Assembly (NCBI GenBank): GCA_044356015.1
Contig: JBIKXA010000002.1
Location: 173-64,172 of the forward strand
Direction of reading: 5' to 3'
From: Roseomonas sp.
GTDB lineage: Bacteria > Pseudomonadota > Alphaproteobacteria > Acetobacterales > Acetobacteraceae
Length of the DNA stretch: 64,000 nucleotides
Made by a program: the position numbers and the translations under genes
Part shown: in pieces, positions 12,536-39,796 of the stretch
Layout of the letters: each line of letters begins with the position of its first letter
Position numbering within the stretch: position 1 is the stretch's first letter
The notes under the pieces: model-generated
The model's database searches: none
Seen by the model: only the letters and a program-made list of their open reading frames with translations
Told to the model about the DNA's origin: nothing

Positions 12536-12539
12536 CGGC

Positions 12540-16084: not shown

Positions 16085-16113
16085 GTCCGTCGTCAAATGA
16101 TTTGACGACGGAC
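16085..16113. repeat. Perfect palindrome; boundary motif copy 1
   Basis: GTCCGTCGTCAAAT-G-ATTTGACGACGGAC (14-bp arms). Confidence 0.9.
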
Positions 16114-16231
16114 AGGCTGACCCTAAAATTGGTCGCACAGGAGTTAGGGTGAGGTAGGCGCACAAAGGGGCTGGCGAAGAGATTTGGCAAAAAGGTCTGA
16201 AATTTCCGTGCCCCCGTCTCGTGATTCCTGA

Positions 16232-17161
16232 TTAACGGCGAATCTCGCCACGCGGGGGCGGAGGAGGGGGGGTGGGTCTCAAGGTTGGGGGCGCCGGGCG
16301 TTGTTGGGTCGCCGGGTTGATGTCTCGGCAGCTCAAATACGGTTCTGCCCCCCTGGCGCGCCGGATCTTAACCGGTACTCTGGTGCGCTCGGTTGTGCCT
16401 TCGCTGGTCCAAATTGCAAGATAGGTGGTCACTTCCTCGAAGTTGGATTGCATGGAACTCTGGCCCTGCGGCGAAGAGCGTTCCAGGACAGAGGGGTGAT
16501 TTACACATTCAAATTCCGCAATAATGCCGCGCATGTCAGGCAGGACCCTGATGCGATCCGCCGGCTGCCCGCCAAGCGTGACTGTGGTGCTGCGCCATAA
16601 GCGGCCCCCGCTCAATCGAAAACTGGCGGGGCGGCCTTCATAGGCGAACATTTCCTCGTCCCGGCTTATGTTCAAATAAGGGGTACGCAGGATTTCAAGG
16701 TTGAGGCCGCGTTCAATCTCAGCTTCAGACCCGGGAATACGCATGCGAAAATCAGTCAATTCACATCCCGCACGCTGCGGAAGTGTTTTCTTTTCCCAAT
16801 CATCAAGCTTGAAAAAATCCTTATGGAAAAGGCTTCTGACGGCTTCGAATTGACCCTCATGCGACCAACACCGTGCCAGTTTGATATGCGCGCGCCGCCA
16901 AAAAGCCGGGAGCGAAAGTATCGCCTGAAGCGTGCGCATTTCCAGCCGATGCCTTTCTTCAAGCCCCAAGCGGGTAGGCAAAAAAATCCAGCCGAAGCTT
17001 TTGTCATGGCTGAACCCGGCAATTGAAATACGCTCCTGAATTCCCTGTGCACGTTCAACGGCAGAATACCAGGCATCGGCATCCAGGCCACCGGCACTCG
17101 CGGTTGGAACCGCAAGCCGCGCCTGAAGCAGCGCTTCAGTCACGGTTTCAAAGCGCTTCAT
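16232..17161 (-). CDS. Hypothetical protein with Pro-rich C-terminus
   Basis: 309-aa ORF of globular-looking composition (GGRLWRSTTVTLGGQPADRIRVLPDMRGIIAEF); ATGA overlap with the upstream ORF. Confidence 0.65.
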   Translation of the reverse strand: MKRFETVTEALLQARLAVPTASAGGLDADAWYSAVERAQGIQERISIAGFSHDKSFGWIFLPTRLGLEERHRLEMRTLQAILSLPAFWRRAHIKLARCWSHEGQFEAVRSLFHKDFFKLDDWEKKTLPQRAGCELTDFRMRIPGSEAEIERGLNLEILRTPYLNISRDEEMFAYEGRPASFRLSGGRLWRSTTVTLGGQPADRIRVLPDMRGIIAEFECVNHPSVLERSSPQGQSSMQSNFEEVTTYLAIWTSEGTTERTRVPVKIRRARGAEPYLSCRDINPATQQRPAPPTLRPTPPPPPPRGEIRR

Positions 17162-17766
17162 TTCGTTGCGGGGGGAGAGTCCGTAGGTAAGATCTCTCGA
17201 TGCCTTTTCTGAAGAAACTCATAAAGCTTCTCTGCGCCATGCGGGGTCGGTTGGACTTGCAACTGGCAGTCCTTCGGAAAGGGCTCTGCAACCGTCAGCT
17301 GGACGAAATCCGAGAGTCGAAAATTGTCGCCTTGTGCGCCTTGACTGCGCCCAGCATCTGCAAGTGACGGCAGTAAAGCCAATTCATGCGCCGTCTGATA
17401 GCGCGCATAGACAGCCGCACATAAAGGGGCATCTGTCTCGATTTTTCTGACCTCAATATAAGAAGAAAGCTGCTCGTTCGGAAATACCTGAAAGGTATAG
17501 GTAAAGTTTCCTAACTCTCGCGCGCCTGGACGGCGATGAAGATCGAGCAGGATGGCTGCCTCAATCGCGGGCAGGTAGCGCGCTGGGCAAGGAAAAAAAA
17601 GAGGCATCAATTTTGGCTGTGGTGGTCTGGGGGGCTGGCTCTGACCCTGGCCGCCGCTCTGCGGTGCTTCGCCGCCTGGCTGGCTTGAAGTATTGCTCGG
17701 CGGTGTGCCGCCAAGTGCTTCGATCAAATCACCATCCTTGCTCCCGATGATCCGCCGTTCTTCGAG
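17158..17766 (-). pseudogene. 3' remnant of a hypothetical gene cut off by the IS3 relic
   Basis: The frame of ORF 17158-17727 stays open upstream (LEERRIIGSKDGDLIEALGG) up to the IS3 end at 17767. Confidence 0.6.
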
Positions 17767-18086
17767 TGGACCTGTCCCGGTTTTGTGCCGCTCCTTTGAT
17801 CACATATTGTGCAGCAAAAGGGATGAACCATGGGCACAGGCAGGACGGATGAATTTCGCAAAGAAGCGGTGCGTATAGCGCTGACCAGCGGGCTTTCGCG
17901 GCGCCAGGTTGCGGATGACCTTGGGGTTGGCTTTTCGACCTTGAACAAATGGGTGAGCGCGCATCGAGGCACGGATGTGGTTTCGGCCGAGGACCGTGAT
18001 CTTGCGCGGGAGAATGAACGACTTCGTCGCGAGGTCCGTATCCTGAAGGAGGAGAGGGACATCCTAAAAAAAGCCACCCAGTATTG
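17767..18086 (+). mobile_element. IS3-family relic (left end plus OrfA only)
   Basis: 5'-TG end (TGGACCTGTCCCGG); OrfA DEFRKEAVRIAL...VADDLGVGFSTLNKWV...ENERLRREVRILKEERDILKKAT with an A7 run at its end; no OrfB/DDE follows. Confidence 0.85.
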
Positions 18087-18148
18087 CGCGACAATCATCC
18101 CAAAATCCAGCCGCGCAATCTCATCCTGATTGTCGCTGCTCTCTCAGC

Positions 18149-18424
18149 TTGATTGTCGGCGGTCACAAGGCCGACCCGGCCCGAGTGAAGGCCCTGGCGC
18201 GGGCGTTCCGCTATCAGAAGCTGCTGGACGAGGGCCGCTATGATAGCATCAGCGAAATGGCAGCGGGGCAGAGGATCGAGTGGGGGTACCTCGGCACCCT
18301 ACTGCGACTGACGCTGCCGGCACTGCTGGAGGGGGTGCCGTTGGGGTGGTCACATCAGCGGGAACATCTTTTGTCCGGCGCGCCGACACGGCTTACGAAA
18401 CAGGAGGTCCGGGTCGAGGCGTGA
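18149..18424 (+). pseudogene. Fragment of a conserved hypothetical gene typical of alphaproteobacterial prophage/ICE recombinase modules (copy 1)
   Basis: ADPARVKALARAFRYQKLLDEGRYDSISEMAA...GYLGTLLRLTL; N-terminus missing and an apparent internal deletion. Family link is recalled, not searched. Confidence 0.55.
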
Positions 18425-18433
18425 TGTCCAGTC

Positions 18434-19342
18434 CTATCGCTTCGGGAGCCAACGCTTGGCAATGCAGCAGGCCACCGTGAAGGCGGGATTGAAGACATTA
18501 CCCACATCATAGCGCACCACCTGGCCCATCAAATGGCTGGCAGCGCGGGCGTCCAAACCATAATCTTCGCCGAGCCAACGCGACATCTCGGTCGTGGCGT
18601 GCTGCAGAGCCTGGTCCAGCGGTCGCGCATTACCAATAGTGAAGATATCGTCGGATGTCTCGCCCCGCGGCCAGGTGATCTTCCGCTTCAGCACGCGGAA
18701 CGTCACCTCCATCTCAAAGGATGTTTCAATGCCGGTGCCAACGATCTCGCCATCGCCTTGGCAGGCATGCCCATCGCCCAGATAAAACAGCGCGCCGGGC
18801 ACCGCGACGGGAAACCAAGCCGTCGTGCCGGGCGCGAACAGCCGATAGTCCATGTTGCCGCCATTCTGCGCGCTGGTCGCGGTGGACAGCGCCTGCCCGC
18901 CAGCCGGCGCGACCCCGAAGCAGCCGATCATCGGCTGGATGGGTGGGGCAAAATCCTCAAGCCCTTTCACATTCTCCTGCAGCCGCACCGTCCCGGCCGC
19001 GTGGTCAATATTCCAGACGACGCGCTGCTGCGGGGGCCGGTCCAGGATGGCCGCCGGGTCCAGCACGGTCAGGGCGAGCGGCGAATAGGTCCAGCCGGTC
19101 GCTCGGCTCGGTGTCAGCCGATCGATCCGCACGGCGAGCGTGTCCCCGGGTTCGGCGCCCTCAATGAAGAACGGACCTGTCATTGGATTTGGCCGGCTGG
19201 CGACAGTCACCTCCCGCGCATCCAGGCCGGACGCATCGATGGTGTCGGTGACCACTGTGTCGCCATCGGCAACGCGCAGGCAGGGCTCTGCAATGCCGAT
19301 CGCGTTGTAGTATCGTGTGGGGTGAAAGCGGTGCTTGGCCAT
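18434..19342 (-). CDS. Acetamidase/formamidase family protein
   Basis: NPMTGPFFIEGAEPGDTLAVRI, PMIGCFGVAP, GGNMD, LGDGHACQGDGEI. Confidence 0.9.
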   Translation of the reverse strand: MAKHRFHPTRYYNAIGIAEPCLRVADGDTVVTDTIDASGLDAREVTVASRPNPMTGPFFIEGAEPGDTLAVRIDRLTPSRATGWTYSPLALTVLDPAAILDRPPQQRVVWNIDHAAGTVRLQENVKGLEDFAPPIQPMIGCFGVAPAGGQALSTATSAQNGGNMDYRLFAPGTTAWFPVAVPGALFYLGDGHACQGDGEIVGTGIETSFEMEVTFRVLKRKITWPRGETSDDIFTIGNARPLDQALQHATTEMSRWLGEDYGLDARAASHLMGQVVRYDVGNVFNPAFTVACCIAKRWLPKR

Positions 19343-19475
19343 GGGCTTCCTGGAAGACCTCGCTGAGATGTGCCGCCTGGTCCGCGCCAGGGCCTGCGTC
19401 CATCACGTTAGGAACCGGGGCGCGCGGCGGTCAAGCAGCAGCATAGGCGGGGGCTTGGCGCCGGTTACTACGCGA

Positions 19476-19544
19476 GCCGACCTGGCGCTGGCAAAGGCTA
19501 TGGCGCAGGCGTTACGGGCCCAGAAGCTGCTGGATGAGGGGCGC
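19476..19544 (+). pseudogene. Second fragment of the same recombinase-module gene (copy 2)
   Basis: ADLALAKAMAQALRAQKLLDEGR, colinear with 18170-18238. Confidence 0.6.
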
Positions 19545-20050
19545 CGGGTCTTCGGAAAGACTTGGACCGCTGGAAGAAGATTATATCTCCCTCGCAGAAG
19601 GAAAATCCTGGAAAACCCGATTTTATGAAAAAAATACCCTGCAAACTTTCACAAGCACGATTCTAACGAAAGCCAGCTTTCCCAACCATGCCGCACCGCA
19701 GCATGAAAAAACCATTTTATATCAATGCGTTACGCCTTGTTGGAAAAATCGGCTTACCCTCAAGCTTTGGAGAGACTTCGCCGGTTCGGAGAAAAAACGG
19801 CGGAATGTTGCGCCCATGCACCATCAAAGCGTGCCAGAAAAAGCCTTGTTTTCAACGGCAATTAGTGGCTGGTTCGGGAAGGCGAGCCGGTTCAGCCAGG
19901 TAGTGACTGGAGCAGCAGTGGCGACCAAAAAGGCGAAACTCTCTGGGGGGAGGGGCCCTCGGACGCCAGTTTGGCTTTAACCGTCATACCGAGGCAACCT
20001 CAGTTGACCGCAAACAGCCATGGAAATCTGGCGCAGCATGGGTTATGTAT

Positions 20051-20060
20051 ATTACGTAAT
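20051..20060. promoter_or_regulatory. Palindromic operator candidate for the TA operon
   Basis: ATTACGTAAT in an AT-rich patch just upstream of the GGAGGT RBS of the antitoxin. Confidence 0.45.
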
Positions 20061-20076
20061 TTGCGGAGGTCTTCCC

Positions 20077-20343
20077 ATGTCCGAGCCCATGCTCAAAGTC
20101 GGCGCTGCAGAAGCCCAGCGAAATTTCGGCCTCTACCAGGACAAGGCCTTGGTCCAACCTGTTGCTATCACTCGCAATGGTCGGCCACGGACGGTGATGA
20201 TCTCCATCGAGGAATATGAGCGCCTAAAGCGCCGGGACCGCCAGGTGATGCGGAGTGAAGACATGCCGCAGGACCTCGCCGACGCTATCCTTCACGCTGA
20301 ACCGTCAGAGGAGAGCAAGCACTACGATCATGAAGTCCGCTAG
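20077..20343 (+). CDS. Phd/YefM-family antitoxin
   Basis: VGAAEAQRNFG...QPVAITRNGRPRTVMISIEEYERL; GGAGGT RBS. Confidence 0.88.
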   Translation: MSEPMLKVGAAEAQRNFGLYQDKALVQPVAITRNGRPRTVMISIEEYERLKRRDRQVMRSEDMPQDLADAILHAEPSEESKHYDHEVR

Positions 20344-20773
20344 GCCGGTGCTTCCGGCTGTCGGCGATGTCATCCGTTATGCCTATCTTTGGAGCCATGA
20401 GAGTGGGGCCGGGCGCGAGGAAGGTACCAAGGATCGTCCTGCCGCTATTGTTGCGCTGCTGCGCGGGGATGATGGTCGTGACGAAGTTGTGGTTTTCCCG
20501 GTCACCTCCTCGCACCCGACTGACGCTGCTGCCGGTGTCGAGATACCGGCGGCGACACGCGATAGGCTTGGACTACAGGATGGACCCTGTTGGGTGATCG
20601 TGACTGAGGTGAACATCTTTGTCTGGCCTGGCCCGGATCTGCGCCGTCCGGAGAACGCCAATGATGGCTTCGTTTACGGTAGTCTGCCGCATGCACTGAT
20701 GCTGAGAATCAAGCAAAGCTTCGCCGCGTGGCGCGCGCGTGGGCGTGTTCGCGCAATCCGGCGTAGTGAGTAG
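20330..20773 (+). CDS. PemK/MazF-like toxin
   Basis: GDVIRYAYLW...EEGTKDRPAAIV...VVFPVTS; overlaps the antitoxin by 14 nt. Confidence 0.7.
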   Translation: MKSARPVLPAVGDVIRYAYLWSHESGAGREEGTKDRPAAIVALLRGDDGRDEVVVFPVTSSHPTDAAAGVEIPAATRDRLGLQDGPCWVIVTEVNIFVWPGPDLRRPENANDGFVYGSLPHALMLRIKQSFAAWRARGRVRAIRRSE

Positions 20774-20987: not shown

Positions 20988-23900
20988 TCATCCCATGCGC
21001 CGCGCGCGCCCTTTAATCCTCGCAAGCCCTGCGGCCACTAGTTCTACCTCCGGCCGCATGCCAAGCTCCTCGGCGATGTCAGCCGCCTGCCGGTAATGTG
21101 ATCCTGCCTCGCGCGGTGCTTCCGCCGAAAGTACGTCGCCCAAAACGCGCCCCGCCCAGGCCAAATGCCCGCGCTCCTCCTGCGATTCAGCAGCATCGCG
21201 GCCGGCGCGGGCCGCCGCCAAGGCGTCCCCCGAAAGGCCCAGATGGTGCGTTGCCTCAGCCAGGCGCAGATAAGTGTGTGCATACATTGGCCCACGTGCC
21301 CGCACCTCCGGCATCACAGCTTGGCGCAGCAGTGCCAGCCCGCGTTCCGTATCGCCGCGCATCACCCGCACATAACCAAGCCCCGCTGCAATCCATGGAT
21401 AGGTCGCTGGCACTTCAACAACGCGGTAGAGTTCGAGGCCCCGTTCCAGCACTGCCTCTGCCTCCTCCAGCGTGCCGGCGCGGATCAGGGCGTGGCCGTG
21501 ACCAAAACTCATCACCGCTTGGGAATAGCTGTTGCCAAGCTGGGCCGCTGCCGCCCAGCCGCGCGCACCTTCATCCCGGGCCGCCGCATCCTCGCCAAGT
21601 TCGGCAAGTGACCAGGCAAGGAAGGAATGGCAAAACACAAATGGATAGCCGCCAAAGGCGAAGGCATCCTGTTCACCGCGCCGATCCAGCAGCGCAATGG
21701 CCTCGCGCAGGACTTTCACTGCCTCCCGATAAGCGCCAACCGCCTGAAGGATGGTACCGCGACGATAAAGGCCAAGCGCCGTGGTCAGATCGCCTTCGCC
21801 GGTTGAAGCGATCGCCATGGCGCTATCGGCAGCCGCTGCCGCAAGCCGATGCTGGGCGCTCTGCCAGTACCAGCCCGAGAGCAGCAATCCGGCACGCATC
21901 TGGCGTGGCTTGTCGCCGACCCCCTCGGCAATCCTGGCGGCCTCTTCCAGGCGCGACGGTATCGCGTCATGCTCTCCAATAATGAATAGGGCGTTACGGA
22001 TTTCAATGTTGAGATCCGCTTCTGCCGCGGCGCGATCCGGTCCATCCGGCAGCCGGCGCAGCGCGTCAAGCGCCCGACTGTAATGGCCAATCGCCTCCCG
22101 GTTCGCTGATCGTGCCGCGGCGCGCAGGCCGGCTTTGCGTCCGTAATCTGCCGCAGCCTCCCAGTCCTCTGCCCGCGCGGCGTGGAAGGCCAGCATTTCA
22201 ACGGGCGATTCTGTGGCACGCTGGGTCGCCTTCGTGCCTTGGCTCCGCTCCATGGCACGCAGGACGCGCAGATGCAGTTCGCGGCGGTCCTGTCGCAGTA
22301 GCGAACCATAGACAACCTCATGCGTTAGCGCGTGCTTGAAACGGTGGACCGGCTCAGGCACCACACGCAGCGGCAGCAAGAACTCACCGGTATGCAGGCG
22401 CGCCATGGCGCGTCCGAAGGCCTCATCCGAAAGGTCACTAACGGCGCGCAGCAGCGGTCCGGGGCCTTCGGCGCCAATCACTGCGGCCATCTGCAGCAGG
22501 CGTTTATCGTCCAGCGCCAACCGATCCAACCGCGCAGCGATAACAGCCTGCACTGTCGCCGGCAGCACCAATCGATCCGGGTTGCCATCCAGGCGATAGG
22601 CGCCTGGCTCGCCGCGCAGCAGCCCGCTTGCTTCGGCAGCGCGCGCGCATTCCTCCAGAAAGAACGGATTGCCGCCCGCACGCGCCGTCAGCTGCTGCTT
22701 CAAAGGTTCGAGTGTCGCATCCGTGCCAAGCGCGCGGTCCAGCAGCGCGCGTGCACCGTCTTGGGTAATCGGTTCAAGCCTGATTTGCCGGTAATGCCCA
22801 AGGCTTGCCCAAGCATGCGCGAATTCGGGACGGTAATTCACCAGCAGCGCAAGGCGGGATGCCGGCAGGGTTTCGATCACGCTTTCCAGAACATCCCGGC
22901 TTGCCGCGTCAATCCAATGCAAGTCTTCGAGCAACGCAAGCAGCGGCTGGTCCGCCGCGTGGCGGTGCAGCAGCGCCTTTACCGCTTCAACCAGCCTGCG
23001 GCCACGCTGCGCCGGTTCCAACTTATCCCAGGGGGATTCAATGTCTGAAGTCGCCACGCTGTCGCCGAGAAGTGCGAGCAGCGCCTCCATCACCGCCGGG
23101 GCGAGCGCAAGCGTATTGCCGGTTGCGACAACGCGTGCCCGGGCGATCTTGGCATCTTCCCCCTGGGCAATGCCAAAATAAGCGCGGATCAGCCCGGCGA
23201 CCGCTGCATAGGCAACATCGCCAGATTGTGAATCCGCAGCAAAGGCAATGGCGCGCCAATCCGGCGGCAGCCTTCCGCTCAGAAATTCCCGCGCAAGGCG
23301 CGATTTGCCGACACCTGCCTCGCCCACGATGGCGACGATCCTGCCCGAACCGACTGACGTCGGCGCCAAAGCGGTGGCCAGGGCATCCAATTCATCCTGC
23401 CGTTCAACGAAGCCGGCTGCCGTTGTCTGCGCCGCACCCTCAGTGGGCGCTTCCAGCCGGTAAAGCGCCGGTCCGGGGAGCCCGGAATCGGAAAGCTGCT
23501 GTTCAGTCTCGGTAAAGCGCATCTTGCCGCGAGTGAGCACCATGCTGGCTTCGGTCGCCAAAGCCGTTCCCGGCAGGGCTGAAGCAGCAAGCCGCGCGGC
23601 GCGTTGCAGGGCGGGGCCTGAAAGGGCACCGCTGCGCAGCAGAACCTCGGCAGAATCGAGCCCGATGGCCAAGACAATGGCGCGATCACCTTCCTGCGCC
23701 GTCATGAGCGCGGTGAGCGCCGCGCGGCAGGCACGCACCGCATGATCTTCGAAGGCCACTGGCGCGCCGAAAGCGGCCGAAACGCCTTCGGCCGAGCAGC
23801 GCAGCACCTGCCCACCATGGGCGCGCACCGCTTCCGCCACGCGCCGCGCCGCCGCTTCAAGCAAGGGCTCCAGATCTTCCAGGTCCGGCGTCATGCCCGG

Positions 23901-24704: not shown

Positions 24705-24789
24705 CGGCGCGGGCCACCTTTCATCATTCAACGGACCGACCATGGGGCAGCGTTATGGGCTTGTCATGTCAAAAGCGTAAGAATCCGCG

Positions 24790-27415: not shown

Positions 27416-27572
27416 CGGATCCCCCCGCGTCATCATGGCCTCGTAGAACGCGCCCAAGAGCTCCCGGCAGCTTGATCCTCGCCGCGCGTTTGTTCGTCCG
27501 GTTGGCCAAAACGCCTTCAGGCCGTCCATTCAATTTCCCGCATTTTTTATCTCAAAAATACTGCCCCCTGCG

Positions 27573-31145: not shown

Positions 31146-31146
31146 G

Positions 31147-31445
31147 TCAGCCCGCCCCCCAGAGTGTGATTTCAACCCGCCGCGCCGTCAGGCTTTCCCG
31201 CCAGCCAACGACGACACCGACAAACCCCTCATCAAAGCCAAAGGCCGGATAGGTGACGCGCCCGATCTGCCCGATCTCAATCTGCCCGAGAAACCGATCC
31301 GTCAGCACGCGGACCATGCGCGGCCCGGCTTCCAGGACGGCGCGCCATTTCTCCGCACGCGCCAGCGCCTCAGTCTCGGTCCAGTAAGCGGCAGGGAATG
31401 AGATTTCGCGCTGCTGTGCGACGCGCGAAGTGATCAGGCTGCTCT
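31147..31445 (-). pseudogene. 3' fragment of upstream prophage gene B, copy 1
   Basis: SSLITSRVAQQREISFPAAYWTE...VEITLWGAG*, homologous to 36125-36420; 5' part replaced. Confidence 0.75.
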
Positions 31446-31826
31446 GCGGGCCTTCACCGCCGCCTAAAGTGACACCGCAACGACCGCCTCCGTAAAAGCC
31501 CTTCCGCCCATCGTCTGCGGCGAGCAGAACATCCTCGACGCCGCAGTTCCGCACCCGATGACGAATCCGCTGACTGCGCGTGCAATCATCGGGTCCAGGC
31601 GCCCAAGGATTAGGCCAAATCCATAGGATGCGAGAATTTGGTACGTCGAAACGGAGTTCTTCTGTCTGCTACCTAGCTTGTCATGGGTAGCAAAAACTGG
31701 GCAAGATGTTCCTGCTGACGTCATATGATGAACAAGAGCCTTCAGGCCGCAAACGCCCAATGCCGGGATCTCATTGGCCTGTACGCTGTTTGCACGAACT
31801 ACGGCTCGTCAATGCAACCGGAGAGG

Positions 31827-32846
31827 ATGATCATGGCTCGATCCGAATGGCTCCTGGGCCGCCGAGTATTCTTGGGTGCCAGTGCAGCGGCGCTGACCAC
31901 ACCAGCCATCGCCCAGCAGCGAGCCGGGCGCGCGGATCGCGTGATCTTTGGCATCGGCCTCTCCGCACCTTTCGCGCCCTATTTGGCGCTGGTCGAGCGC
32001 GGGATCGGCACGAAGCATGGCATTCGCGCCGAATACCGCGTCTTCGAATCCTCCATCGGTGGAATGGAAGCGGTGGTGACGGGCAATGCCCATGTTGCCT
32101 TCGGAAGTGAGCTTTCCGCATTGCGTCCACGCGCTTCGGGGGCGCGGATCCTGGGCGTCGGGCGCCCACTGATTTCTGACAAGGACATCGGCATCGGTGT
32201 CAATTCCACGATCCAACGCCCGGAGGATTTCCGCGGAAAGCGTGTTGGCATGATCCGTGGCACAGCGGCCGACTATCTCTTTCATCTATTTTGTCAGCGA
32301 CATGGTCTCACTGAAGGCACAGGCCCGAACGACATCCGCGTGCTTGCGGTCCAAGCGCCTGAATGGGTGCCAGCCCTGCAGCGTGGTGACATTGACGCGT
32401 TCTTCGGATGGGAGCCTTGGCTCACGCGCCTGCCCACGATCGTGCGTGGCGCGCGTGTTTACGCCTATTCCTCGGAAGATAACCTCTATCAGCTCTGGTA
32501 CACGATGGTGTTCCGAGAGGAATGGGCGCGCGAGGATCCTGACAGTGCCGGGGCCACCTATCGGGCCGTGGCGGAAGCCATGGAGTGGGTCAACGCCAAC
32601 CGCGAGGAGGCGGTGCAGCTCGCCGCACGGATATTCCGTACGCCAGTCGCCGACATGCGGGTGCAGATGGCGGCCAACAATTATGTGCTCGATACAAAAC
32701 GCGAGCATCCGGTCCGCATTAAGCAGGTTGCCGCCTGGGCAAGGCAGCGCAACCTGATCAATGTTGACAATACGGATCGCCTTGTTGATGACTACTACTA
32801 TCCGGACATCGCCAAGCGGTACGCTCCGAACCTGACCGATTTTTGA
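31827..32846 (+). CDS. NitT/TauT (SsuA/TauA-like) ABC substrate-binding protein
   Basis: Tat-like GRRVFLG, EDFRGKRVGMIRGTAADY, ALQRGDIDAFFGWEPW. Confidence 0.88.
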   Translation: MIMARSEWLLGRRVFLGASAAALTTPAIAQQRAGRADRVIFGIGLSAPFAPYLALVERGIGTKHGIRAEYRVFESSIGGMEAVVTGNAHVAFGSELSALRPRASGARILGVGRPLISDKDIGIGVNSTIQRPEDFRGKRVGMIRGTAADYLFHLFCQRHGLTEGTGPNDIRVLAVQAPEWVPALQRGDIDAFFGWEPWLTRLPTIVRGARVYAYSSEDNLYQLWYTMVFREEWAREDPDSAGATYRAVAEAMEWVNANREEAVQLAARIFRTPVADMRVQMAANNYVLDTKREHPVRIKQVAAWARQRNLINVDNTDRLVDDYYYPDIAKRYAPNLTDF

Positions 32847-32851
32847 TTGCA

Positions 32852-33640
32852 ATGTCGTTCATCGAGTTTCGGGATGTCGGGTTCCGTTATGGCGAGCAGG
32901 AGGATGCGGGTAACAGCATCCTCCGCGGCCTGGACCTGGAGATCGCCCGTGGCACCTTCTACGTTTTGCTTGGACCATCGGGCTGCGGCAAAACGACCGC
33001 TTTGAACCTTCTTGCTGGGTTTGAAACACCGAAATCTGGCTCCGTGCTGGTTGAGGGGCGGCCGGTGCAGCAGCCGGGTATGGATCGGGTCGTCATTTTC
33101 CAGGGCGATGACAGTCTCTACCCCTGGCTAACCGCGCTCGAAAACGTGGAATTTCCCCTGCGCATGACGGGACGAGGTGCAGCGGAGCGCCGAAGCCGAG
33201 CCGAGACTTGGCTGGCGCGCGTTGGCCTTGCCAATCATGCGGCGAAGTTTCCGCACCAGCTCTCCGGGGGCATGAAGCAGCGTATCCAGATCGCACGTGC
33301 GCTCGTCTGCGACGCGCCGGTCCTGCTGATGGATGAGCCCTTCGGGGCGCTGGACGCGCAGACGCGGACGATCCTGCAGGATGAATTGGTTGATATCTGC
33401 GCCGGTTCTGGTGCGACCGTACTATTCATCACACACGATATCGCCGAGGCGATCATTCTCGCCGATCGCATCGGCGTGATGCGTGCCGGGCCAGGCAGTG
33501 CCGTCAAGGACGAGTTCGAGCTTGATCTCCCGAGACCACGCAATCGCGGTAGCGTGGAGTTTGCCGCCATTTATGATAGGATCCAACGCGTATTGAGCGA
33601 GGAGGTCCAGAAGGTGGTGATGCGCGAGGCGGCGGCGTGA
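32852..33640 (+). CDS. NitT/TauT ABC ATP-binding subunit
   Basis: GPSGCGKTT, LYPWLTALENV, LSGGMKQR, MDEPFGALDAQTR. Confidence 0.92.
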   Translation: MSFIEFRDVGFRYGEQEDAGNSILRGLDLEIARGTFYVLLGPSGCGKTTALNLLAGFETPKSGSVLVEGRPVQQPGMDRVVIFQGDDSLYPWLTALENVEFPLRMTGRGAAERRSRAETWLARVGLANHAAKFPHQLSGGMKQRIQIARALVCDAPVLLMDEPFGALDAQTRTILQDELVDICAGSGATVLFITHDIAEAIILADRIGVMRAGPGSAVKDEFELDLPRPRNRGSVEFAAIYDRIQRVLSEEVQKVVMREAAA

Positions 33641-34437
33641 GCGGCGCCATCGCCAAGCCCCCCGGCCATGGCTTTGTACACCATCTAACGTGGCTGGTGT
33701 TGCGTCTCCTTCCCTTCGTCGGGATGATCTTCCTGTGGGACTTCACCTCCCGCGTTTTTGATGTTCCTGTGTTGTTTCCAGGACCGCTGAGCACCTGGAA
33801 TAAGGCGACACAACTTATCGCCGAGGGCCAGTTGCAGGCGGACATCCTGATCAGCCTATGGCGCATCGCAGTCGGTTTCGTACTGGGCTCGCTGCTCGGC
33901 ATGACGCTTGGACTGATGATGGGATTGTCGCGCCCCATTGCCGATATTCTGGGCCCATTCGTCCACACGCTGCGCTTCATCGGACCCATCGCTTGGATTT
34001 CCGCGGTCATGATGTGGTTCGGATTAGGCGAGACCTCCAAGGTCGTTCTGATTGTCTACACGACGACCTTCGTGGTGCTGATCAGCACCATGATCGGCGT
34101 GATGACCATTCATCCGAACAAGCTGCGTGCAGCCCGGGTCTTCGGCGCCCGGGGCTTCCGTCTCTTTGCGCACGTCACCTTGCCGGCCGCATTGCCTCAT
34201 GTCCTCACGGGCGCGCGGCTCGCCATGATGAATTCTTTCATGACCATCATCGCAGCCGAGATGGTGGCAGCCCGGGAAGGGCTCGGCTTCCTGATCTTCA
34301 ATTCCCGGCAATGGATGGAGGTAGATGCGATTTTTGTAGGCATGATTACGCTCGGCCTGCTCGGGCTATTGGCTGACCGGCTCATGGTCCTGCTGACGCG
34401 GGTGCTGTTCCGCCGCTTCCGGCCGGCAGAAGCGTGA
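33637..34437 (+). CDS. NitT/TauT ABC permease
   Basis: ISLWRIAVGF, IGPIAWI, AAEMVAAREGLG. Confidence 0.9.
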   Translation: MSGAIAKPPGHGFVHHLTWLVLRLLPFVGMIFLWDFTSRVFDVPVLFPGPLSTWNKATQLIAEGQLQADILISLWRIAVGFVLGSLLGMTLGLMMGLSRPIADILGPFVHTLRFIGPIAWISAVMMWFGLGETSKVVLIVYTTTFVVLISTMIGVMTIHPNKLRAARVFGARGFRLFAHVTLPAALPHVLTGARLAMMNSFMTIIAAEMVAAREGLGFLIFNSRQWMEVDAIFVGMITLGLLGLLADRLMVLLTRVLFRRFRPAEA

Positions 34438-35198
34438 GCGTGCACGTGTCTCGCAGTGTGATGCGCGGAGGCGGTGCAATCCTGCTATTTTTGATCGCCT
34501 GGGAAATCGCCGGGCGCACCATCTTCGTTCCTGCCGTGCTCCCCGCGCCAAGTGCCATAGCCGCTGAGGGCTGGGCGAGGTCGCTTTCCGGAGCACTGCA
34601 ATGGGACGTGCTGATGAGCGCCTCCCGCCTTGCGGTTGGCTTTGCCGCCGGCAGTATTCTGGGGGCCTTCCTCGGACTGCTGTTCGGGGCCTTCGCTCCC
34701 GTGCGGCGCATCCTAGAACCCTTGGTGCAGTTTCTCCGCTTTATTCCGCCGATCGCATGGCTGACGCCAGTTCTGATTTGGTTTGGCATCGGCGAGGAGG
34801 GCAAATGGGTTCTCATTACCTACACGACTACCTTCATGGTCCTACTCAACACACTCGCGGGTTTCGCCGAACAGCATCGCGACCGGATGCGTGCTGCGCA
34901 TGTCTTTGGAGCCGGATCTTGGGAGGCATTCCTGCACGTCCGCTTGCCTGCCACAGTTCCGTGGATCCTGGGCGGCATGCGCATAGGGATGGGTAATTCC
35001 TTCCAGACGCTCATCGTCGCGGAGATGTTGGCTTCAAACGAGGGGCTGGGTCAGCTGATCCTAAATAGCCGTCTGCAGCTCTCCACCGAGGGCATGTTCG
35101 TAGGAATCGCGGGTATTGCGGTTCTGGGCATCCTGGCCGATTCTGTATTTCGAGCCACCACGCGAAGAATGTTCCATCGATATCGCCTGGGCTGGTAA
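34434..35198 (+). CDS. NitT/TauT ABC permease
   Basis: FIPPIAWL, VAEMLASNEGLG. Confidence 0.9.
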   Translation: MSVHVSRSVMRGGGAILLFLIAWEIAGRTIFVPAVLPAPSAIAAEGWARSLSGALQWDVLMSASRLAVGFAAGSILGAFLGLLFGAFAPVRRILEPLVQFLRFIPPIAWLTPVLIWFGIGEEGKWVLITYTTTFMVLLNTLAGFAEQHRDRMRAAHVFGAGSWEAFLHVRLPATVPWILGGMRIGMGNSFQTLIVAEMLASNEGLGQLILNSRLQLSTEGMFVGIAGIAVLGILADSVFRATTRRMFHRYRLGW

Positions 35199-36125
35199 AG
35201 TCCTGAGGTGTTGTCCATCGTCAAATGATTTGAGACTGATTGGCGTTTTGGGTAACAGAGTATCGGGCGCATCTGTGGGATAGGTAATGCTGCGTTTTGG
35301 TGATGCATCCGGCGGCAAAGCTATCCAACTGCCCCCTATTACCCTCTCCACGATCCTGACCGCCCGCGCCGTGAACGGAAAGCTGTCTCGGCTGGCGCTG
35401 GCTTCTTCCCCCGGTGCATTGACCGCCCCCCAAATGGCCCGGCGATTGCGCTCGGCAAGGCTGTCGCCAAGCTCCGCAATCCAAAACGCATCGCCAGTAG
35501 CCCCAAGTCGGCGCAGTAATTCGCGGTGCTGGTTGCGCGCCTCGGCAACCGACAACGCGGGCAAGGTGAAAGCCGCAAAGCGCGGGTTGATGATGGCCGG
35601 CACTGGGAATTCCGCGCCGGTGTATGGATTGCGGTCGCGGCGGTCGAGCATGACGCGGCCTTCGCGAATGCCATACGCCGTGCCGCGCTGCAGCCGCCAT
35701 AGCTGCCCCGCCACAAGCAGCCCGATATCCAGGTAAGGCGCCGCACCATCGGTGAGGTCAATCCGGAGATACCGCGCCATGACAGGCGCCGGCAGTACCA
35801 GCACAACATTCCCCTGTGCCTCATCCTGCGCCTCGGCGTTGATGGTGCCGGTATCAGCCTGCACAGTTGCAAAACTGCTCATATTGGCAAGCCGCACCCG
35901 GGTGGTGGCATTGGCGCTGAGCGTCGTGGAAAGCAACGCCACGCAATCCACCAGCAGGGCTGCCAGCAAATCCACATCGATTGTTGCATTAGCCGCATTG
36001 AGCCGCGCCCGCTGCCGCGGCTGCGCATCCTGAAGGTTTGCAAGCGGCATGCTCGGCACAGTGGCTTGTGCGCTGTTCAGCACAGCGCCCTTGGCGACAT
36101 TGTCATACAAAAACGCCCCCGGCAT
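35061..36125 (-). CDS. Prophage tail-region gene A copy 2 (normal stop lost near 35337; read-through extension)
   Basis: Colinear with copy 1 up to ERV, then GTA ATA instead of GTA TAA, so the frame runs across the boundary motif into the antisense of the permease. Confidence 0.7.
   Translation of the reverse strand: MPGAFLYDNVAKGAVLNSAQATVPSMPLANLQDAQPRQRARLNAANATIDVDLLAALLVDCVALLSTTLSANATTRVRLANMSSFATVQADTGTINAEAQDEAQGNVVLVLPAPVMARYLRIDLTDGAAPYLDIGLLVAGQLWRLQRGTAYGIREGRVMLDRRDRNPYTGAEFPVPAIINPRFAAFTLPALSVAEARNQHRELLRRLGATGDAFWIAELGDSLAERNRRAIWGAVNAPGEEASASRDSFPFTARAVRIVERVIGGSWIALPPDASPKRSITYPTDAPDTLLPKTPISLKSFDDGQHLRTLPAQAISMEHSSRGGSKYRIGQDAQNRNTRDSYEHALGGELQTAI
35213..35233 (+). repeat. 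Boundary motif copy 2
   Basis: GTCCATCGTCAAATGATTTGA, 14 nt after the permease stop; identical to 39610-39630. Confidence 0.9.
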
Positions 36126-36830
36126 CAGCCCGCCCCCCATGCCGTGATTTCAACGCGCCGTGCCGCAAGCCTCTCCCGCCAGCCGACCACCACGCCGACA
36201 AAGCCGTTCTGAAACCCAAAGGCGGGATAGGTTACGCGCCCGATTTGCCCGATTTCGATCTGCCCAAGATACCGATCCGTCACCACGCGCAGCATGCGCG
36301 GCCCGGCCTCAACCAAGGCCCGCCATTTCTCGGCACGCGCCAGCGCCGCAGCCTCGGTCCAGTATTAGGCGGGGAAAGTCATTTCGCGCTGCTGCGCGAC
36401 GCGGGAGGTAATCAGGCTGCTTTCCACCCGGGCGAAACTTCCCGCCTGGGAAAGCCGCTGCCGGTCGGCCGCCGCGATACTGCCAACCATGTTGGACAGC
36501 GGCGCATGGTTCAAGCCCCAGCGCACCGCAATGGTGCGCGGCAACAGGCGCAAGCCCGCAGGCAAGACCAAGGGCTCACAGGCCAGTACGCATTCCGCGG
36601 GCAGGTCGGCGGTGCCCGATATAGTGCTGGTAATCCGACTGGCAGCGACACCGCACAGATGATCCGGGCCAAATAACGTCCTGTCGCGCGCATCCGGTGT
36701 GCGGCAAATGGCGACCACCTCATGCGCGGCAGGGTCCGCCATGCAGAATACATTCTTGGTCCGCCGGCCAGCGCCACCCAGCCACCCGGGTCGGAGAACA
36801 CAAGGATGGTGGTGCAGATTAACTATCCCG
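36125..36830 (-). pseudogene. Prophage gene B copy 2 with in-frame nonsense codon
   Basis: TFPA*YW (TAA at 36365-36367) where copy 1 reads SFPAAYW; 5' part truncated near 36830. Confidence 0.75.
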
Positions 36831-36908
36831 GCCAGCCATCATAGAAATCACTATTAAGCTCGCCGCCATAGGAGTCGAAAACTGAGTCCTCCAGCAAGCC
36901 GTTTGATG

Positions 36909-36929
36909 TCAATTCACTTGATGACGGAC
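36909..36929 (-). repeat. Boundary motif copy 3 (inverted, degenerate)
   Basis: Reverse complement GTCCGTCATCAAGTGAATTGA matches copy 1 at 18/21; 7 nt past the TctC stop. Confidence 0.75.
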
Positions 36930-36936
36930 CGGGCCA

Positions 36937-37920
36937 CTATTCCCCCTTGATGCCTGCTGCTGCGATCACTTCGGCGAATCGCTTCTCGGCGTCCTTCAGC
37001 ACCTTGTCGAATTGCGCAGGGGTACTGGCGTGAATGACAAAACCCAAGGCCTGCAACCGCTGCTTCACACCAGGATCATCCAGTGCTACCTTCCATGCAC
37101 GATACCAAACATCCACAATATGATCCGGCGTTTCTAATGGCACTAAAATACCTTGGGTGCTTGGGACATCAAAACCTGGAATACCGCTTTCAGCAAAGGT
37201 CGGCACATTCGGCATGGCTGGATCACGCTGTAATGTTGATACTGCTAAGGGGATCAAACGTCCTTCCCGGACATAGGTCGTCACAGCCGGCAGTGTGATG
37301 ATCTGCGCATCCACTTGGCCGGCAAGTAAGTCAATCGTGGCTGGCCCACCTCCACGATAAGGAACATGCGTGACCGTAAGCCCAAGGGCTCGGTTCACCA
37401 TTTCGCTAATAATATGTGCAATGCCACCAATACCTGGGACCGCAAGGGTAACCTTGTCCCCCCGCGTTCTCAGCGCCAAGAGATAATCATCTATGTTGCG
37501 TATGCCCGAACGGGGATGCGTACAAAGCAGTTGCGCCGCAGTAATGGTCATAGTCACTGGACGAAGCTTTGACGCGGGTCGCCCGTGGCGTGCCCCAACC
37601 AGAATATCCTGTAGGATGAGACCATCACCCGATGCGACCATCTGCGTTAGGCCATCTGGCGCTGAGCGTGCCACAGTTTGTGTGGCGACCAGACCCGCGC
37701 CGCCGCCCTGATTTTCCACAATCAGCGCTTGGTTCAGGTGACTTGAGAGCACAGGTTGTGCTGCGCGCGCATGAATATCAAGCGTGCCACCAGGTGCTGC
37801 CGCAACAATGATTCGTACCGGTTGCGATGGTCGCCATGGCTGCGCCAATAACGGCCACGGGAACAGCGTCAAGGCGGATGTGGCGATCATCAAATTCCGA
37901 CGCGTCAATCCCCGGTCCAT
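36937..37920 (-). CDS. Bug/TctC tripartite tricarboxylate transporter receptor
   Basis: RRNLM, PGGTLDIHAR, VENQGGGAG, HVPYRGGGPATIDLLAGQVD, PTFAESG. Confidence 0.9.
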   Translation of the reverse strand: MDRGLTRRNLMIATSALTLFPWPLLAQPWRPSQPVRIIVAAAPGGTLDIHARAAQPVLSSHLNQALIVENQGGGAGLVATQTVARSAPDGLTQMVASGDGLILQDILVGARHGRPASKLRPVTMTITAAQLLCTHPRSGIRNIDDYLLALRTRGDKVTLAVPGIGGIAHIISEMVNRALGLTVTHVPYRGGGPATIDLLAGQVDAQIITLPAVTTYVREGRLIPLAVSTLQRDPAMPNVPTFAESGIPGFDVPSTQGILVPLETPDHIVDVWYRAWKVALDDPGVKQRLQALGFVIHASTPAQFDKVLKDAEKRFAEVIAAAGIKGE

Positions 37921-37954
37921 TGTCTTCCTCCTTGCTGGGTCTTGTTGGATTTCC

Positions 37955-39571
37955 TCAGTTTGGCCAGGCGCCAAAGGGTGCATCACCGTCCTTCTTCACC
38001 TCATGCACTAGATCAATTTCCCAGGCGAGGTAGGCGCGCATGGCTTCCTCGATGCCGTCATTATGATCGAAGGGGAGCAGATGAACATCGTCGCAGTCCC
38101 AGTCCTCCGGATTACGTCGATTGGCAACAATAGGCAGGCCACAGGCTTTCCATTCTGCCATTCCGCCAGCCAAAATTGCTATCGGCACCGCGACGAGATC
38201 CGCCAGTTCAGCATAGGCCAAGCGGGCCAGCGCCGGTTCCGGCGCCGTGATCACAAGCTGCTCCGCTGCGCCAAGTTTCGGCAGCAGGCGCGCAAGACGC
38301 CCCCTCAAACCCCAGATCGCACCAGGTGCATGGCCAGCGCGGAAACTGACCGAACGATTCAAATCAATGATCCTCACGCGGTCCCCTTGGGCCGCAACTT
38401 CGCGCGGGGATATTTGCGGTGCGGCAATCCCATTTGCTTCCGGGCAATGCAGGGGCGGCGTGCCATCTTCAAGCGCGCCATTCAGCCCACCTTCAAGAAC
38501 ATAGACTTCCCACCCCCCAAGCTCGCGCAACCATCCCGCACTCATCCGCGCGCGCGTGCCGGTATCGTCAATCAGAATGATGCGGGCATGGCGCACCGCC
38601 ACCCACATATCCACCGATTGAACAAGCTGCCCGCCCGGCGCATTCAGGCTTCCTGGCAAATGACCTTGCACATATTCTGCCGGATCTCTCACATCCAGCA
38701 GATAGCAGCTTCGGGATATATCCTTTCTCAGTGTTTCTGCCTGTTGGGCATCAATGAAACGCACGCCGCGCTTTCGTGCAAAATGATCAGCACGCTCTAG
38801 GGCCAATTCTGCCTCTCGCGGTACGCCGATACTGAAGCTTTCCGTCTTGCCGTGCGCGCATTGGTAGCCCGCCAATTCCCAGCCCATGGTTCCATTGCGC
38901 AGGGCCACAACCTGATTGGGTATGCCAGCACTACGCAGCGATTCCGCGCCCATAATGGACCGAGTGCGCCCTGCGCAATTGATAATAATGGTGGTTTCAG
39001 GATTATGGACGAAATCCCCAATCCGATAAACCAGTTCACCACCCGGCACGTTGATGCCGCCGGGAATGGACATTCTGATGAATTCGTCCTTCGGTCGACT
39101 ATCAAGAATCACCATATTGCCGCCAGTCTTCACCATCGAATCCAATTCGGCGGGATCTATTGAAGGTGTTTCGTAGTGATGTTCGACCCATTCGCCAAAA
39201 GCCTTGGATGGCACGTGCACCCCTGAGAACGCGACATATCCGGCGGCAATCCAGTTGGGCATCCCACCCTCAAGAACAGAAACATCGGCATAGCCAATGA
39301 GCAGCAGATATTTGGCGAGTGTTTCCGCGCTACCCTGCCCGCCATCCACGCAAACGATACGCACGGTTTTGGAGGGCAAAAGTGCACGCGCGCGCCATTC
39401 CATGCGAGAAACTGGGCATGGCACGGCCCAGAACAAATGACAGGGACCGAAAGCACTTTCCTCACGCGCATCAAGAATGGCCAGTTCAACACCGTCATTG
39501 ATCAAGGTCTTAACCTGCGCAGGTGTCATGTATCGCAACGCAGCTCTGCCTGATGTGCTTGCTTGGATCAT
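37955..39571 (-). CDS. Multi-domain rhodanese-type sulfurtransferase
   Basis: Repeated rhodanese starts LDARE, LDSRP, LDVRD, IDLNR; active-site-like INCAGRTRS. Start taken at MIQAS (39571). Confidence 0.85.
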   Translation of the reverse strand: MIQASTSGRAALRYMTPAQVKTLINDGVELAILDAREESAFGPCHLFWAVPCPVSRMEWRARALLPSKTVRIVCVDGGQGSAETLAKYLLLIGYADVSVLEGGMPNWIAAGYVAFSGVHVPSKAFGEWVEHHYETPSIDPAELDSMVKTGGNMVILDSRPKDEFIRMSIPGGINVPGGELVYRIGDFVHNPETTIIINCAGRTRSIMGAESLRSAGIPNQVVALRNGTMGWELAGYQCAHGKTESFSIGVPREAELALERADHFARKRGVRFIDAQQAETLRKDISRSCYLLDVRDPAEYVQGHLPGSLNAPGGQLVQSVDMWVAVRHARIILIDDTGTRARMSAGWLRELGGWEVYVLEGGLNGALEDGTPPLHCPEANGIAAPQISPREVAAQGDRVRIIDLNRSVSFRAGHAPGAIWGLRGRLARLLPKLGAAEQLVITAPEPALARLAYAELADLVAVPIAILAGGMAEWKACGLPIVANRRNPEDWDCDDVHLLPFDHNDGIEEAMRAYLAWEIDLVHEVKKDGDAPFGAWPN

Positions 39572-39609
39572 TTCGCGTTCCCTTTGCAGAATATGCTGCC
39601 ATGACAAGT

Positions 39610-39630
39610 GTCCATCGTCAAATGATTTGA
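39610..39630 (+). repeat. Boundary motif copy 4
   Basis: GTCCATCGTCAAATGATTTGA; gapless similarity to copy 2 continues a further 42 nt (GAGTATC.GGC.CATCTG). Confidence 0.9.
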
Positions 39631-39796
39631 GGTCGATTTGCGGCTTGACTAGCGGAGTATCTGGCCCATCTGCGTGTCCACCGTCAGCGCCTCTGAGACC
39701 AAACTGGCGAAGTGAGGTACGGAGAATTTCCGGCTCATCGTAATCCCAAAGAAAGTGAGGATGAACCATCTGCGGCGCCACTAGTTGGCATCCCCC

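Follow-up and report, generated by a model that had tools for sequence, protein, structure and literature searches.

Relics of the right end of an IS3-family insertion sequence as the probable source of a recurrent dyad motif in Roseomonas sp.

The motif (T)GTCCGTCGTCAAATGATTTGAGAC, which recurs across the window (the entire 64,000-nucleotide stretch of Roseomonas sp. DNA analyzed here), is in all probability (roughly 0.93) the right-end inverted repeat (IRR) of an IS3-family insertion sequence (IS) of approximately 1.51 kb, the copies in the window being relics of old insertions and deletions. These scars do not represent a novel type of site for cassette recombination, and the main value of the finding is one of annotation: the motif should be labeled as IS3-family terminal repeat relics, while the regions at 16 to 20 kb and 30 to 41 kb should be read as IS-scarred, rearranged DNA, which harbors a truncated ptxD-like gene and three decayed phage tail remnants. 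The mechanism involved is already known, and current understanding of transposition is unchanged by any of these findings.

A sequence-only reading of this DNA had reported four copies of the motif, and a search with GTCCRTCGTCAAATGATTTGA, in which up to three mismatches were allowed, returned exactly those sites, namely, 16085, 35213, and 39610 (all plus strand, no mismatches) and 36909 to 36929 (minus strand, three mismatches), in addition to a minus-strand mirror match at 16093 to 16113 which forms part of the 16085 site. At the same threshold, none of 100 dinucleotide-preserving shuffles contained a match. The corresponding features are as follows.

16085 to 16113, no strand assigned: perfect 29-nt palindrome, GTCCGTCGTCAAAT-G-ATTTGACGACGGAC.
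35212 to 35327, plus strand: relic B, an IS right end with its TGTCC tip at 35212 and its interior running rightwards.
36909 to 36930, minus strand: degenerate IRR tip, at 36929/36930, the interior of which would run leftwards.
39609 to 39674, plus strand: relic C1, 66 nt of an IS right end with its tip at 39609 and its interior running rightwards.
39675 to 39767, plus strand: relic C2, an IS left end nested directly after relic C1.

The closeness of the copies to gene ends, also remarked upon in that reading, holds at distances of 14, 8, and 38 nt, as the copy at 35213 lies 14 nt past the permease stop codon (35198), that at 36909 to 36929 lies 8 nt from the TctC stop codon (36937), and that at 39610 is separated by 38 nt from the rhodanese start codon (39571), on its upstream side. 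It is likewise true that no matching transposase is located near the copies, since a tblastn search of the whole window with OrfA and OrfB of a full-length IS produced zero matches. The suggested likeness to an IS5 end at 56327 proved spurious: the two share the hexamer AGGCCG only, and the 56327 locus is an unrelated IS5-family (DUF4096) pseudogene. A near-identity search of positions 35000 to 40000 against plasmids, an exact-protein look-up of the rhodanese gene product, and a full-text literature search with the motif sequence returned no match, no record, and no paper, respectively.

That the motif is an IS end is a matter of direct observation. A scan of a genome collection, in which one genome per species was taken, identified 96 instances of the motif, of which 82 ran on into 35 nt or more of conserved IS-end interior while the outer flank was unrelated between loci; TGT preceded the motif in 77 of these 82. 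Among the 80 instances of the TGTCC type, 35 were located no more than 160 nt from the end of the stored sequence and pointed outwards, as expected where assemblies break in repeats. The homology to IS ends extends 64 to 117 nt past the motif and covers the last transposase codons. A search for the mirrored motif no farther than 6 kb from each genome locus was positive only in L092, a near-empty result which is explained by the true left repeat (IRL) differing from the right one. Of the alternatives originally offered, it is thus the terminal repeat of an IS or miniature element (MITE) that was right: many other genomes contain intact copies of the IS3-family element of which the motif is the IRR, and the existence of such copies points, by the refuting condition set out in the sequence-only reading itself, to a known mechanism.

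The boundaries of the IS were set by comparing copies whose flanks are unrelated. Three full-length copies of 1,512 to 1,513 bp (L053, L066, and L089) are 98.6% identical over exactly that span, and three more (L076, L010, and L056) measure 1,469 to 1,517 bp. All contain orfA and orfB, encode an rve DDE transposase, and possess TG...CA termini with an imperfect IRL; the left and right repeats (TGTCCGGCGTCAGCACCTGTGAGACA and TGTCCGTCGTCAAATGATTTGAGACA) are identical at 18 of 26 positions, in keeping with the imperfect TG...CA repeats of the IS3 family. OrfA of a full-length relative carries an HTH_Tnp_1 domain, while OrfB of L053 matches PF00665 rve (E = 2.7e-25) and rve_3 (1e-14), also contains an HTH domain, and reaches 190 bits with the NCBIfam IS3 model NF033516 (cutoff, 160). 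In all three copies examined (L053, L076, and L010), the A-AAA-AAG slippery site is present at the orfA/orfB overlap, within CTN-AAA-AAA-AGC at nucleotides ~421 to 428, where the end of orfA is overlapped by the orfB frame; the two open reading frames are thus predicted to be joined by a -1 frameshift, as in the IS3 family.

In two respects, these copies depart from the usual IS3 pattern, as the left and right termini are similar over ~70 nt and as the clean target duplications are long. Perfect 9-bp duplications flank L089 (CTCAGTGAC) and L076 (GTCGGTGAT), and none was found at the remaining five of the seven full-length copies examined. Target duplications of the IS3 family are usually 3 to 5 bp, and a 9-bp duplication is, therefore, atypical. 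On the NCBIfam IS481 model, the transposase does nearly as well, at 215.7 bits (cutoff, 224), which places the element at the border of the IS3 and IS481 families. Members of the IS481 family possess TGT termini and make duplications that are longer and variable (4 to 15 bp), and the resemblance further includes an OrfB-like protein with its own N-terminal HTH plus an rve domain; IS481 elements, however, encode a single open reading frame, whereas a separate orfA and a frameshift site are present here. Membership of IS481 was rejected on the basis of this separate orfA and the subthreshold score.

The four window copies are homologous to IS3 termini, those at 16085 and 36909 matching at the tip only. 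Relic B, in which the IRR, the subterminal region, and traces of the final orfB codons survive, matches positions 1 to 117 of a right-end profile (nhmmer, E = 1.9e-28) and is 80 to 85% identical over ~105 nt to IS ends at more than 40 loci. The likeness between the 35212 and 39609 copies was upheld, in that their first 23 nt are identical and positions 35212 to 35275 and 39609 to 39672 share 81% identity over 64 nt; relic C1 matches the right-end profile with an E value of 3.1e-15 (39609 to 39704). Relic C2 comprises the IRL TGTCCACCGTCAGCGCCTCTGAGAC (regex match with no mismatches), the 5' untranslated region, and the start codon of orfA. Its sequence lines up with full-length copies at their left ends, matches positions 1 to 93 of a left-end profile (E = 6e-22), and is followed by a joint of ~30 nt and then the stop codon of a phage-derived gene, gene X-C. 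The degenerate tip shares 18 of 21 positions with the motif (19 of 25 with flanks) and matches at the tip only, its interior homology not being significant (13 of 300 shuffles score as well, with no nhmmer match).

As no window copy has a properly oriented partner end with a target duplication, no single insertion event can be reconstructed. The earlier suggestion that the element mobilized the cassettes was not borne out: no end pair with target duplications brackets cargo, and the window contains no intact IS. The relics do coincide with a truncated gene and with a breakpoint, as a metagenome contig which is 98.8% identical to positions 35332 to 40140 parts from the window sequence precisely at the inner edge of relic B. 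We consider it probable that the presence of relics beside "cargo" genes reflects IS-driven rearrangement of a decayed phage tail remnant and not cassette-specific recombination.

The truncated gene adjoins the palindrome.

15934 to 16083, minus strand: 3' end of a PtxD-like phosphite/D-2-hydroxyacid dehydrogenase gene, comprising the last ~48 codons and the stop codon.

The ~275 N-terminal codons of this gene are missing, and its truncation point is exactly the palindrome. While a Pfam search with the 49-amino-acid (aa) fragment gave no match, its identity was obtained from a phmmer search against PDB sequences (residues 276 to 317 of the 329-aa phosphite dehydrogenase 4e5m, E = 6.6e-8). The palindrome itself, a 14+1+14 hairpin as previously described, corresponds to the outermost 14 nt of the IRR plus their mirror image; the IS interior is absent, and the right-end profile matches on both strands at positions 1 to 22 only. 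It occurs at this single locus and is carried unchanged in all eight related metagenome contigs of the same population, among which no empty-site allele was found.

In the active element, the transposase would bind the IRR and cut at the terminal CA, an imperfect second repeat (IRL, TGTCCGGCGTCAGCACCTGTGAGAC) being situated at the other end. The four window scars are presumed to have arisen from past insertions followed by deletion, nesting, or recombination, which would have left the right-end stumps at 35212 and 39609, the left-end stump at 39675 nested in the second of these, the decayed tip at 36929, and the palindrome at 16085. The palindrome probably derives from two inward-facing right ends, as in the 225-bp IRR-IRR element of L092, and we propose as the route either deletion between the 6-nt TCAAAT/ATTTGA repeats within each IRR or a template switch at this quasi-palindrome. 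The relics are presumably inert at present unless an intact copy elsewhere in the genome provides the transposase.

Two of the relics adjoin copies of a phage tail-module gene, here designated gene X, and a third copy is situated at lower coordinates in the window.

30360 to 31665, minus strand: unit A, gene X-A (30360 to 31145) plus the C-terminal third of a 519-aa phage gene (31156 to 31665).
35340 to 36125, minus strand: gene X-B, a 262-aa phage tail-module protein (PHROG 8610).
36134 to 36607, minus strand: upstream phage gene fragment, the C-terminal third (residues ~360 to 519) of a 519/526-aa gene.
39800 to 40537, minus strand: gene X-C, residues 17 to 262 only, 5' truncated (tblastn).

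Homologues of gene X lie in phage context. Gene X-B, which displays weak F5/8 type C similarity and is 88% identical to gene X-C at the DNA level, lies ~5 to 12 nt from where relic B stops, and its frame extends through relic B to 35061 because its stop codon is mutated. The adjacent fragment carries an in-frame stop and is thereby a pseudogene (tblastn with L107_519 and L096_526; open reading frame list). Relic B and the tip at 36909 bracket a 1.72-kb unit composed of gene X-B and this fragment (unit B, 35212 to 36930). Unit A is truncated at the same 5' point as unit B and has no IS end attached; past the phage gene fragment, the distal flanks of the two units showed no homology when aligned. 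No orthology was found between the ABC transporter that neighbors gene X in L107 and that of the window.

This arrangement raises the possibility that the relics arrived as parts of IS-derived MITEs or mobile insertion cassettes which carried gene X or its 3' part and were moved in trans by the IS transposase, with unit B as one example. Short, transposase-less elements with IS ends do exist (L092, 225 bp; L007/L019, 282 to 288 bp; L162, ~680 bp), and their occurrence in differing contexts suggests that elements of this type are mobile. The element of L007 and L019 consists of the IRR, ~135 nt of the gene X 3' end, and the IRL, and is found in two genomic contexts, while L162 holds gene X residues 112 to 262 between two inverted left ends. 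The joint between the IS right end and gene X recurs in L012, L033, L006/L052, and L156 to L159, and that between the left end and gene X recurs in L007, L019, L124 to L126, and L148; approximately 30 of 54 metagenome loci contain 5'-truncated gene X fragments, all of which retain the C terminus. The upstream phage gene is cut at almost the same 5' position in units A and B and in L119, which lie in differing contexts, and unit B is enclosed by outward-facing tips. Against this, neither unit B nor the three MITEs examined (L092, L007, and L019, of 225 to 288 bp with both ends) show a flanking target duplication, one of the enclosing tips, that at 36929, is degenerate and lacks supporting interior homology, unit A is without any IS ends, phage contigs and L107/L108 likewise carry gene X free of IS ends, and the joints could have been spread by homologous recombination between gene X paralogues, with no transposition involved. 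On balance, we regard such an origin of the window relics as doubtful, though worthy of consideration. A broader version is slightly less probable again and is offered as speculation: a non-autonomous IS3-derived lineage may have captured gene X (PHROG 8610) and spread it, whole or 5' truncated, in freshwater Roseomonas-like genomes, the dispersed IS-end/gene X units serving as portable homology which shuffles transporter operons, and the IRR-IRR and IRL-IRL elements, together with collapse to the 29-nt palindrome, arising as a by-product of IS end chemistry. Were this the case, such capture and shuffling would give rise to the cassette-like layout at 30 to 41 kb.

A role for the dyad TCAAAT-G-ATTTGA as a transcription factor operator or as a structural hairpin, for example a terminator, of neighboring genes is very improbable. 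Its symmetry, its position 38 nt upstream of the rhodanese start codon, and its proximity to three gene ends would suit such a role. As single-stranded DNA, the 16085 palindrome folds at -19.2 kcal/mol (z = -8.2), whereas the other three of the four copies fold no better than shuffled sequence, and the genes around the copies have no common function or orientation. The dyad is probably incidental, as it is not conserved in the related IS ends of Agrobacterium vitis and Methylorubrum (M.) extorquens AM1, and the extended IS homology accounts for the conservation of the motif without an operator or hairpin role.

A tyrosine recombinase core site, with 11-bp arms GTCCGTCGTCA and TGACGACGGAC around a 7-bp spacer defining exchangeable cassettes, is strongly disfavored. 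As with XerCD/pdif and integron attC sites, a short dyad-containing sequence falls between functionally unrelated gene sets, and the 16085 palindrome can be parsed as 11-7-11, but two arms are present in only one of the four copies, the copies are in mixed orientation, unlike what cassette excision needs, no 11-6-11 Xer consensus is evident, and no integrase or Xer-type gene or domain was detected in the neighboring open reading frames scanned. The recombination site originally proposed is, therefore, unsupported, given that the motif is a DDE transposon terminus at 82 genome loci and continues as 64 to 117 nt of IS-end homology which includes transposase codons. Three further candidates were rejected: a composite transposon (36931 to 39608, TctC-rhodanese, between two IRR tips), because neither IS is intact and there is no duplication; a TnpB/omega-RNA-like reading of gene X with the conserved ~130-nt end, because gene X is absent from intact elements and the end encodes the OrfB C terminus; and a Mu-like transposable phage end (tail-module gene X beside TG...CA), because the adjoining 125 nt is IS3 orfB/IRR sequence.

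The closest known systems to the IS of the motif are the ~1.51-kb IS3 elements of an alphaproteobacterial clade, which share with it orfA (HTH_Tnp_1), orfB (rve DDE), the A-AAA-AAG site, and imperfect TG...CA repeats; in contrast, the window holds relics only, without a transposase. Proteins with 76 to 78% identity are annotated as "IS3 family transposase" on plasmids of A. vitis, Yoonia, Ruegeria, and Paracoccus, and a match of 76% on the megaplasmid of M. extorquens AM1 has no annotated feature there. The A. vitis and AM1 copies have near-identical ends, and the AM1 copy is 1,510 bp long with the IRR TGTCCGTCGTCAGATGATTTGAGAC, one base different from the motif. ISMex37 and ISMex16 are 1,510 and 1,511 bp, respectively (Table S4, PMC2680597), and the named relative is likely ISMex16/37 of AM1, a match by length and family only. 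MiniMdi3 of Methylobacterium exemplifies an IS-derived MITE or mobile insertion cassette (PMC2680597). The short elements described above resemble this class in being IS-bounded and transposase-less, some with a gene X fragment as passenger, and differ from it in that some related elements are bounded by two right or two left ends and that no target duplications were seen. For the mobile element field, this clade at the IS3/IS481 border, with its 9-bp target duplications and ~70-nt end similarity, is of minor interest, as are its foldback derivatives with two identical ends and its MITEs carrying a fragment of a phage structural gene.

The repeated palindromic motif of the window is a known mechanism, the terminal repeat of an insertion sequence (IS) of the IS3 family, of which the window holds relics only. 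A motif search recovered exactly the four sites of the sequence-only reading, namely 16085 (where the opposite strand bears its mirror), 35213, 39610 and, inverted and with three mismatches, 36909-36929, and returned no match in 100 shuffled windows. That reading had offered either a recombination site or the terminal repeat of an IS or MITE, and the second proposal was right. When one genome per species was scanned for CCNTCGTCAAATGATTTGA, 96 instances were retrieved from 95 loci, mostly of Alphaproteobacteria and including Roseomonas, Methylocystis, Bradyrhizobium, Rhizobium, Asaia and Micavibrio metagenome-assembled genomes (MAGs). The aligned loci had unrelated sequence on the left side of (T)GTCC and, on the right, conservation extending beyond 110 nt; in 82 of the 96 instances, this conserved stretch continued for 35 nt or more. 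Among the other 14, approximately 11 resembled chance matches inside unrelated DNA (approximately 17 matches being the chance expectation for 18 specified bases), and the remaining three (L031, L049 and L085) displayed the TGT…GAGAC form, yet were cut short or diverged. As is expected where assemblers break inside multicopy repeats, 35 of 80 TGTCC-type instances were located no more than 160 nt from the end of the stored sequence, always pointing outwards.

The limits of the full-length element were set by comparing three copies within one MAG (L053, L066 and L089), which share 98.6% identity over exactly their 1512- to 1513-bp span; related copies measure 1469 to 1517 bp. In standard orientation, its left terminal inverted repeat (IRL) is TGTCCGGCGTCAGCACCTGTGAGACA. 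The element encompasses orfA (124 aa, HTH_Tnp_1 domain), whose overlap with orfB carries an A-AAA-AAG slippery site, and orfB itself (approximately 326 aa, HTH and rve domains), which scored 190 bits on the NCBIfam IS3 model (cut-off, 160) and 215.7 bits on the IS481 model (cut-off, 224). The orfB stop codon is positioned 77 nt before the end of the element, which reads ...GTCTCAAATCATTTGACGACGGACA, and the motif therefore represents the right terminal inverted repeat (IRR), read from the tip inwards. Perfect 9-bp target duplications flank two full-length copies (L089 and L076), and the two ends of the element are alike over approximately 70 nt, both of which are unusual for the IS3 family.

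Proteins with 76 to 78% identity, annotated as "IS3 family transposase," are encoded on plasmids of cultured Alphaproteobacteria, and the copies of A. vitis (1515 bp) and of the M. extorquens AM1 megaplasmid (1510 bp) possess ends near-identical to those of the element. Two IS3-family types of this size appear in the inventory of AM1 insertion sequences (PMC2680597, Table S4), ISMex37 at 1510 bp and ISMex16 at 1511 bp, one of which is the likely match by length and family alone.

The window was scanned with profiles built separately from the IS right ends and left ends.

IS-end remnants in the window and the gene fragment at the palindrome
35212-35327: relic B, right-end profile positions 1-117 (E = 2e-28)
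39609-39674: relic C1, right-end nt 1-66 (E = 3e-15)
39675-39767: relic C2, left-end profile positions 1-93 (E = 6e-22)
16085-16113: palindrome, right-end profile matched at its tip only, both strands
36909-36930: match limited to a degenerate IRR tip
15934-16083, minus strand: PtxD-like fragment, C-terminal ~48 residues only of a phosphite/2-hydroxyacid-dehydrogenase-like protein

Over 64 nt, the right ends at 35212-35275 and 39609-39672 are 81% identical. Relic C2 is nested directly after the 66-nt stump C1 in the same direction, and similar nested arrangements are present in L042 and L057/L088. At 36909-36930, a colinear alignment further inward was suggestive, not significant, as 13 of 300 shuffles scored equally well. 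The earlier remark that no matching transposase lies beside the copies held true across all 64 kb, tblastn searches with OrfA and OrfB yielding zero matches; the window has a G+C content of approximately 60%, and comparison of 35000-40000 with plasmids produced no near match.

A role for the motif dyad as an operator or hairpin is unlikely: three of the four motif copies do not fold, and related IS ends do not conserve the dyad. A cassette site of the tyrosine-recombinase or Xer type is excluded in practice, since IS homology stretches far past the motif, no recombinase is encoded by the neighboring ORFs scanned and two arms occur in one copy only. The suspected likeness to an IS5 end proved to be a mere common hexamer, the feature at 56402-56715 (plus strand) being an unrelated, stop-broken IS5-family (DUF4096) transposase pseudogene.

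The palindrome at 16085-16113 is perfect (14+1+14), joins the outermost 14 nt of the IRR to their mirror image and is placed exactly at the point where a gene is cut off, the PtxD-like fragment aligning to residues 276 to 317 of the 329-aa PDB 4e5m (E = 6.6e-8). Deletion between the 6-nt TCAAAT/ATTTGA repeats within two inward-facing IRRs, as found in L092, a 225-bp element with a right end at both sides, would generate precisely this palindrome; alternatively, it may have arisen through template switching at the IRR, itself a quasi-palindrome. In eight same-population metagenome contigs the palindrome is fixed, and hence none of them provided an empty site.

Neighboring the PtxD-like fragment are a sulfatase gene and three tandem paralogous substrate-binding protein genes (9353-14159, minus strand; 65 to 72% DNA identity to one another, period of approximately 1.6 kb), whose SBP_bac_5 label was taken from the annotation of related contigs. 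The other side of the palindrome is a patch of mobile-DNA debris, including an orfA fragment (HTH_Tnp_1) of a different, unrelated IS3-type element (17830-18129, plus strand). A pair of overlapping ORFs (309 and 189 aa; 16232-17727, minus strand) is 100% identical in at least eight metagenome contigs and has no match in Pfam or PHROG, and repeat D10, a short piece of coding sequence with "...AFRYQKLLDEGRY...", is present in two copies (18149-18424, plus strand, and 19476-19544). The debris patch also harbors a Phd/YefM-type antitoxin gene (20020-20343, plus strand) overlapping a downstream 141-172-aa ORF with zero Pfam matches; together, 20020-20773 probably constitute a toxin-antitoxin pair. 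Contigs L112 and L111 differ upstream of the 17830-19544 patch, and the population therefore varies in this region.

At 30 to 41 kb, three paralogous minus-strand units (unit A, 30360-31665; unit B, gene part 35340-36607; unit C, gene at 39800-40537), with mutual identity of 77 to 88%, are spaced approximately 4.5 to 5 kb apart among transporter operons. Every unit contains gene X (262 aa; PHROG 8610 match, weak F5/8 type C similarity), and units A and B, with an identical 5′ truncation point, also carry the C-terminal third of an upstream 519/526-aa gene. In metagenome contigs of approximately 37 kb, this gene pair forms part of a phage tail module with Collar, Laminin_G_3 and Gp77 domains, and the units are therefore decayed phage remnants; in unit B, the upstream fragment has an in-frame stop and gene X has lost its stop codon. 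The 3′ ends of the gene X copies in units B and C adjoin relics B and C2, respectively, and the DNA between units simply happens to contain an ABC-transporter operon (31725-35198) and the pair of TctC and rhodanese genes (36937-39571). One contig matches 35332-40140 at 98.8% identity, and its similarity breaks off precisely where the interior side of relic B lies, showing that this joint was recently rearranged. L107/L108 have a different, non-orthologous ABC transporter after gene X, and no IS end. Across metagenomes, gene X occurs in many contexts, and approximately 30 of 54 loci contain 5′-truncated fragments of it, each of which retains the C terminus.

Joints between IS ends and gene X are not confined to this genome, the right-end joint being present also in L012, L033, L006/L052 and L156-L159 and the left-end joint in L007, L019, L124-L126 and L148. 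In L007 and L019, whose contexts differ, a 282- to 288-bp element consists of IRR, approximately 135 nt from the 3′ end of gene X and IRL, and in L162 two inverted left ends enclose a gene X fragment. These structures suggest that some such units may be mobilized in trans as non-autonomous elements; no target duplication was seen at unit B or at the three MITEs examined. The 9-bp duplications, elements with two identical ends and MITEs with a phage-gene fragment are slightly unusual features.

Other repeats were also observed in the window. A direct repeat of approximately 150 nt (24787-24937 versus 27570-27721; 78 to 81% identical) spans the upstream region and first codons of two small genes, both of which adjoin large BTAD/TPR/AAA regulator genes (20988-24743 and 25697-27415). 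At 63060-63192/63595-63754, two hairpin-like 44-nt units, which start with GGTTTGCACC and end with GGTGCAAAC, are situated 89 nt apart, and a nearby run of GGTCCGGGTGG-type repeats forms an inverted pair.
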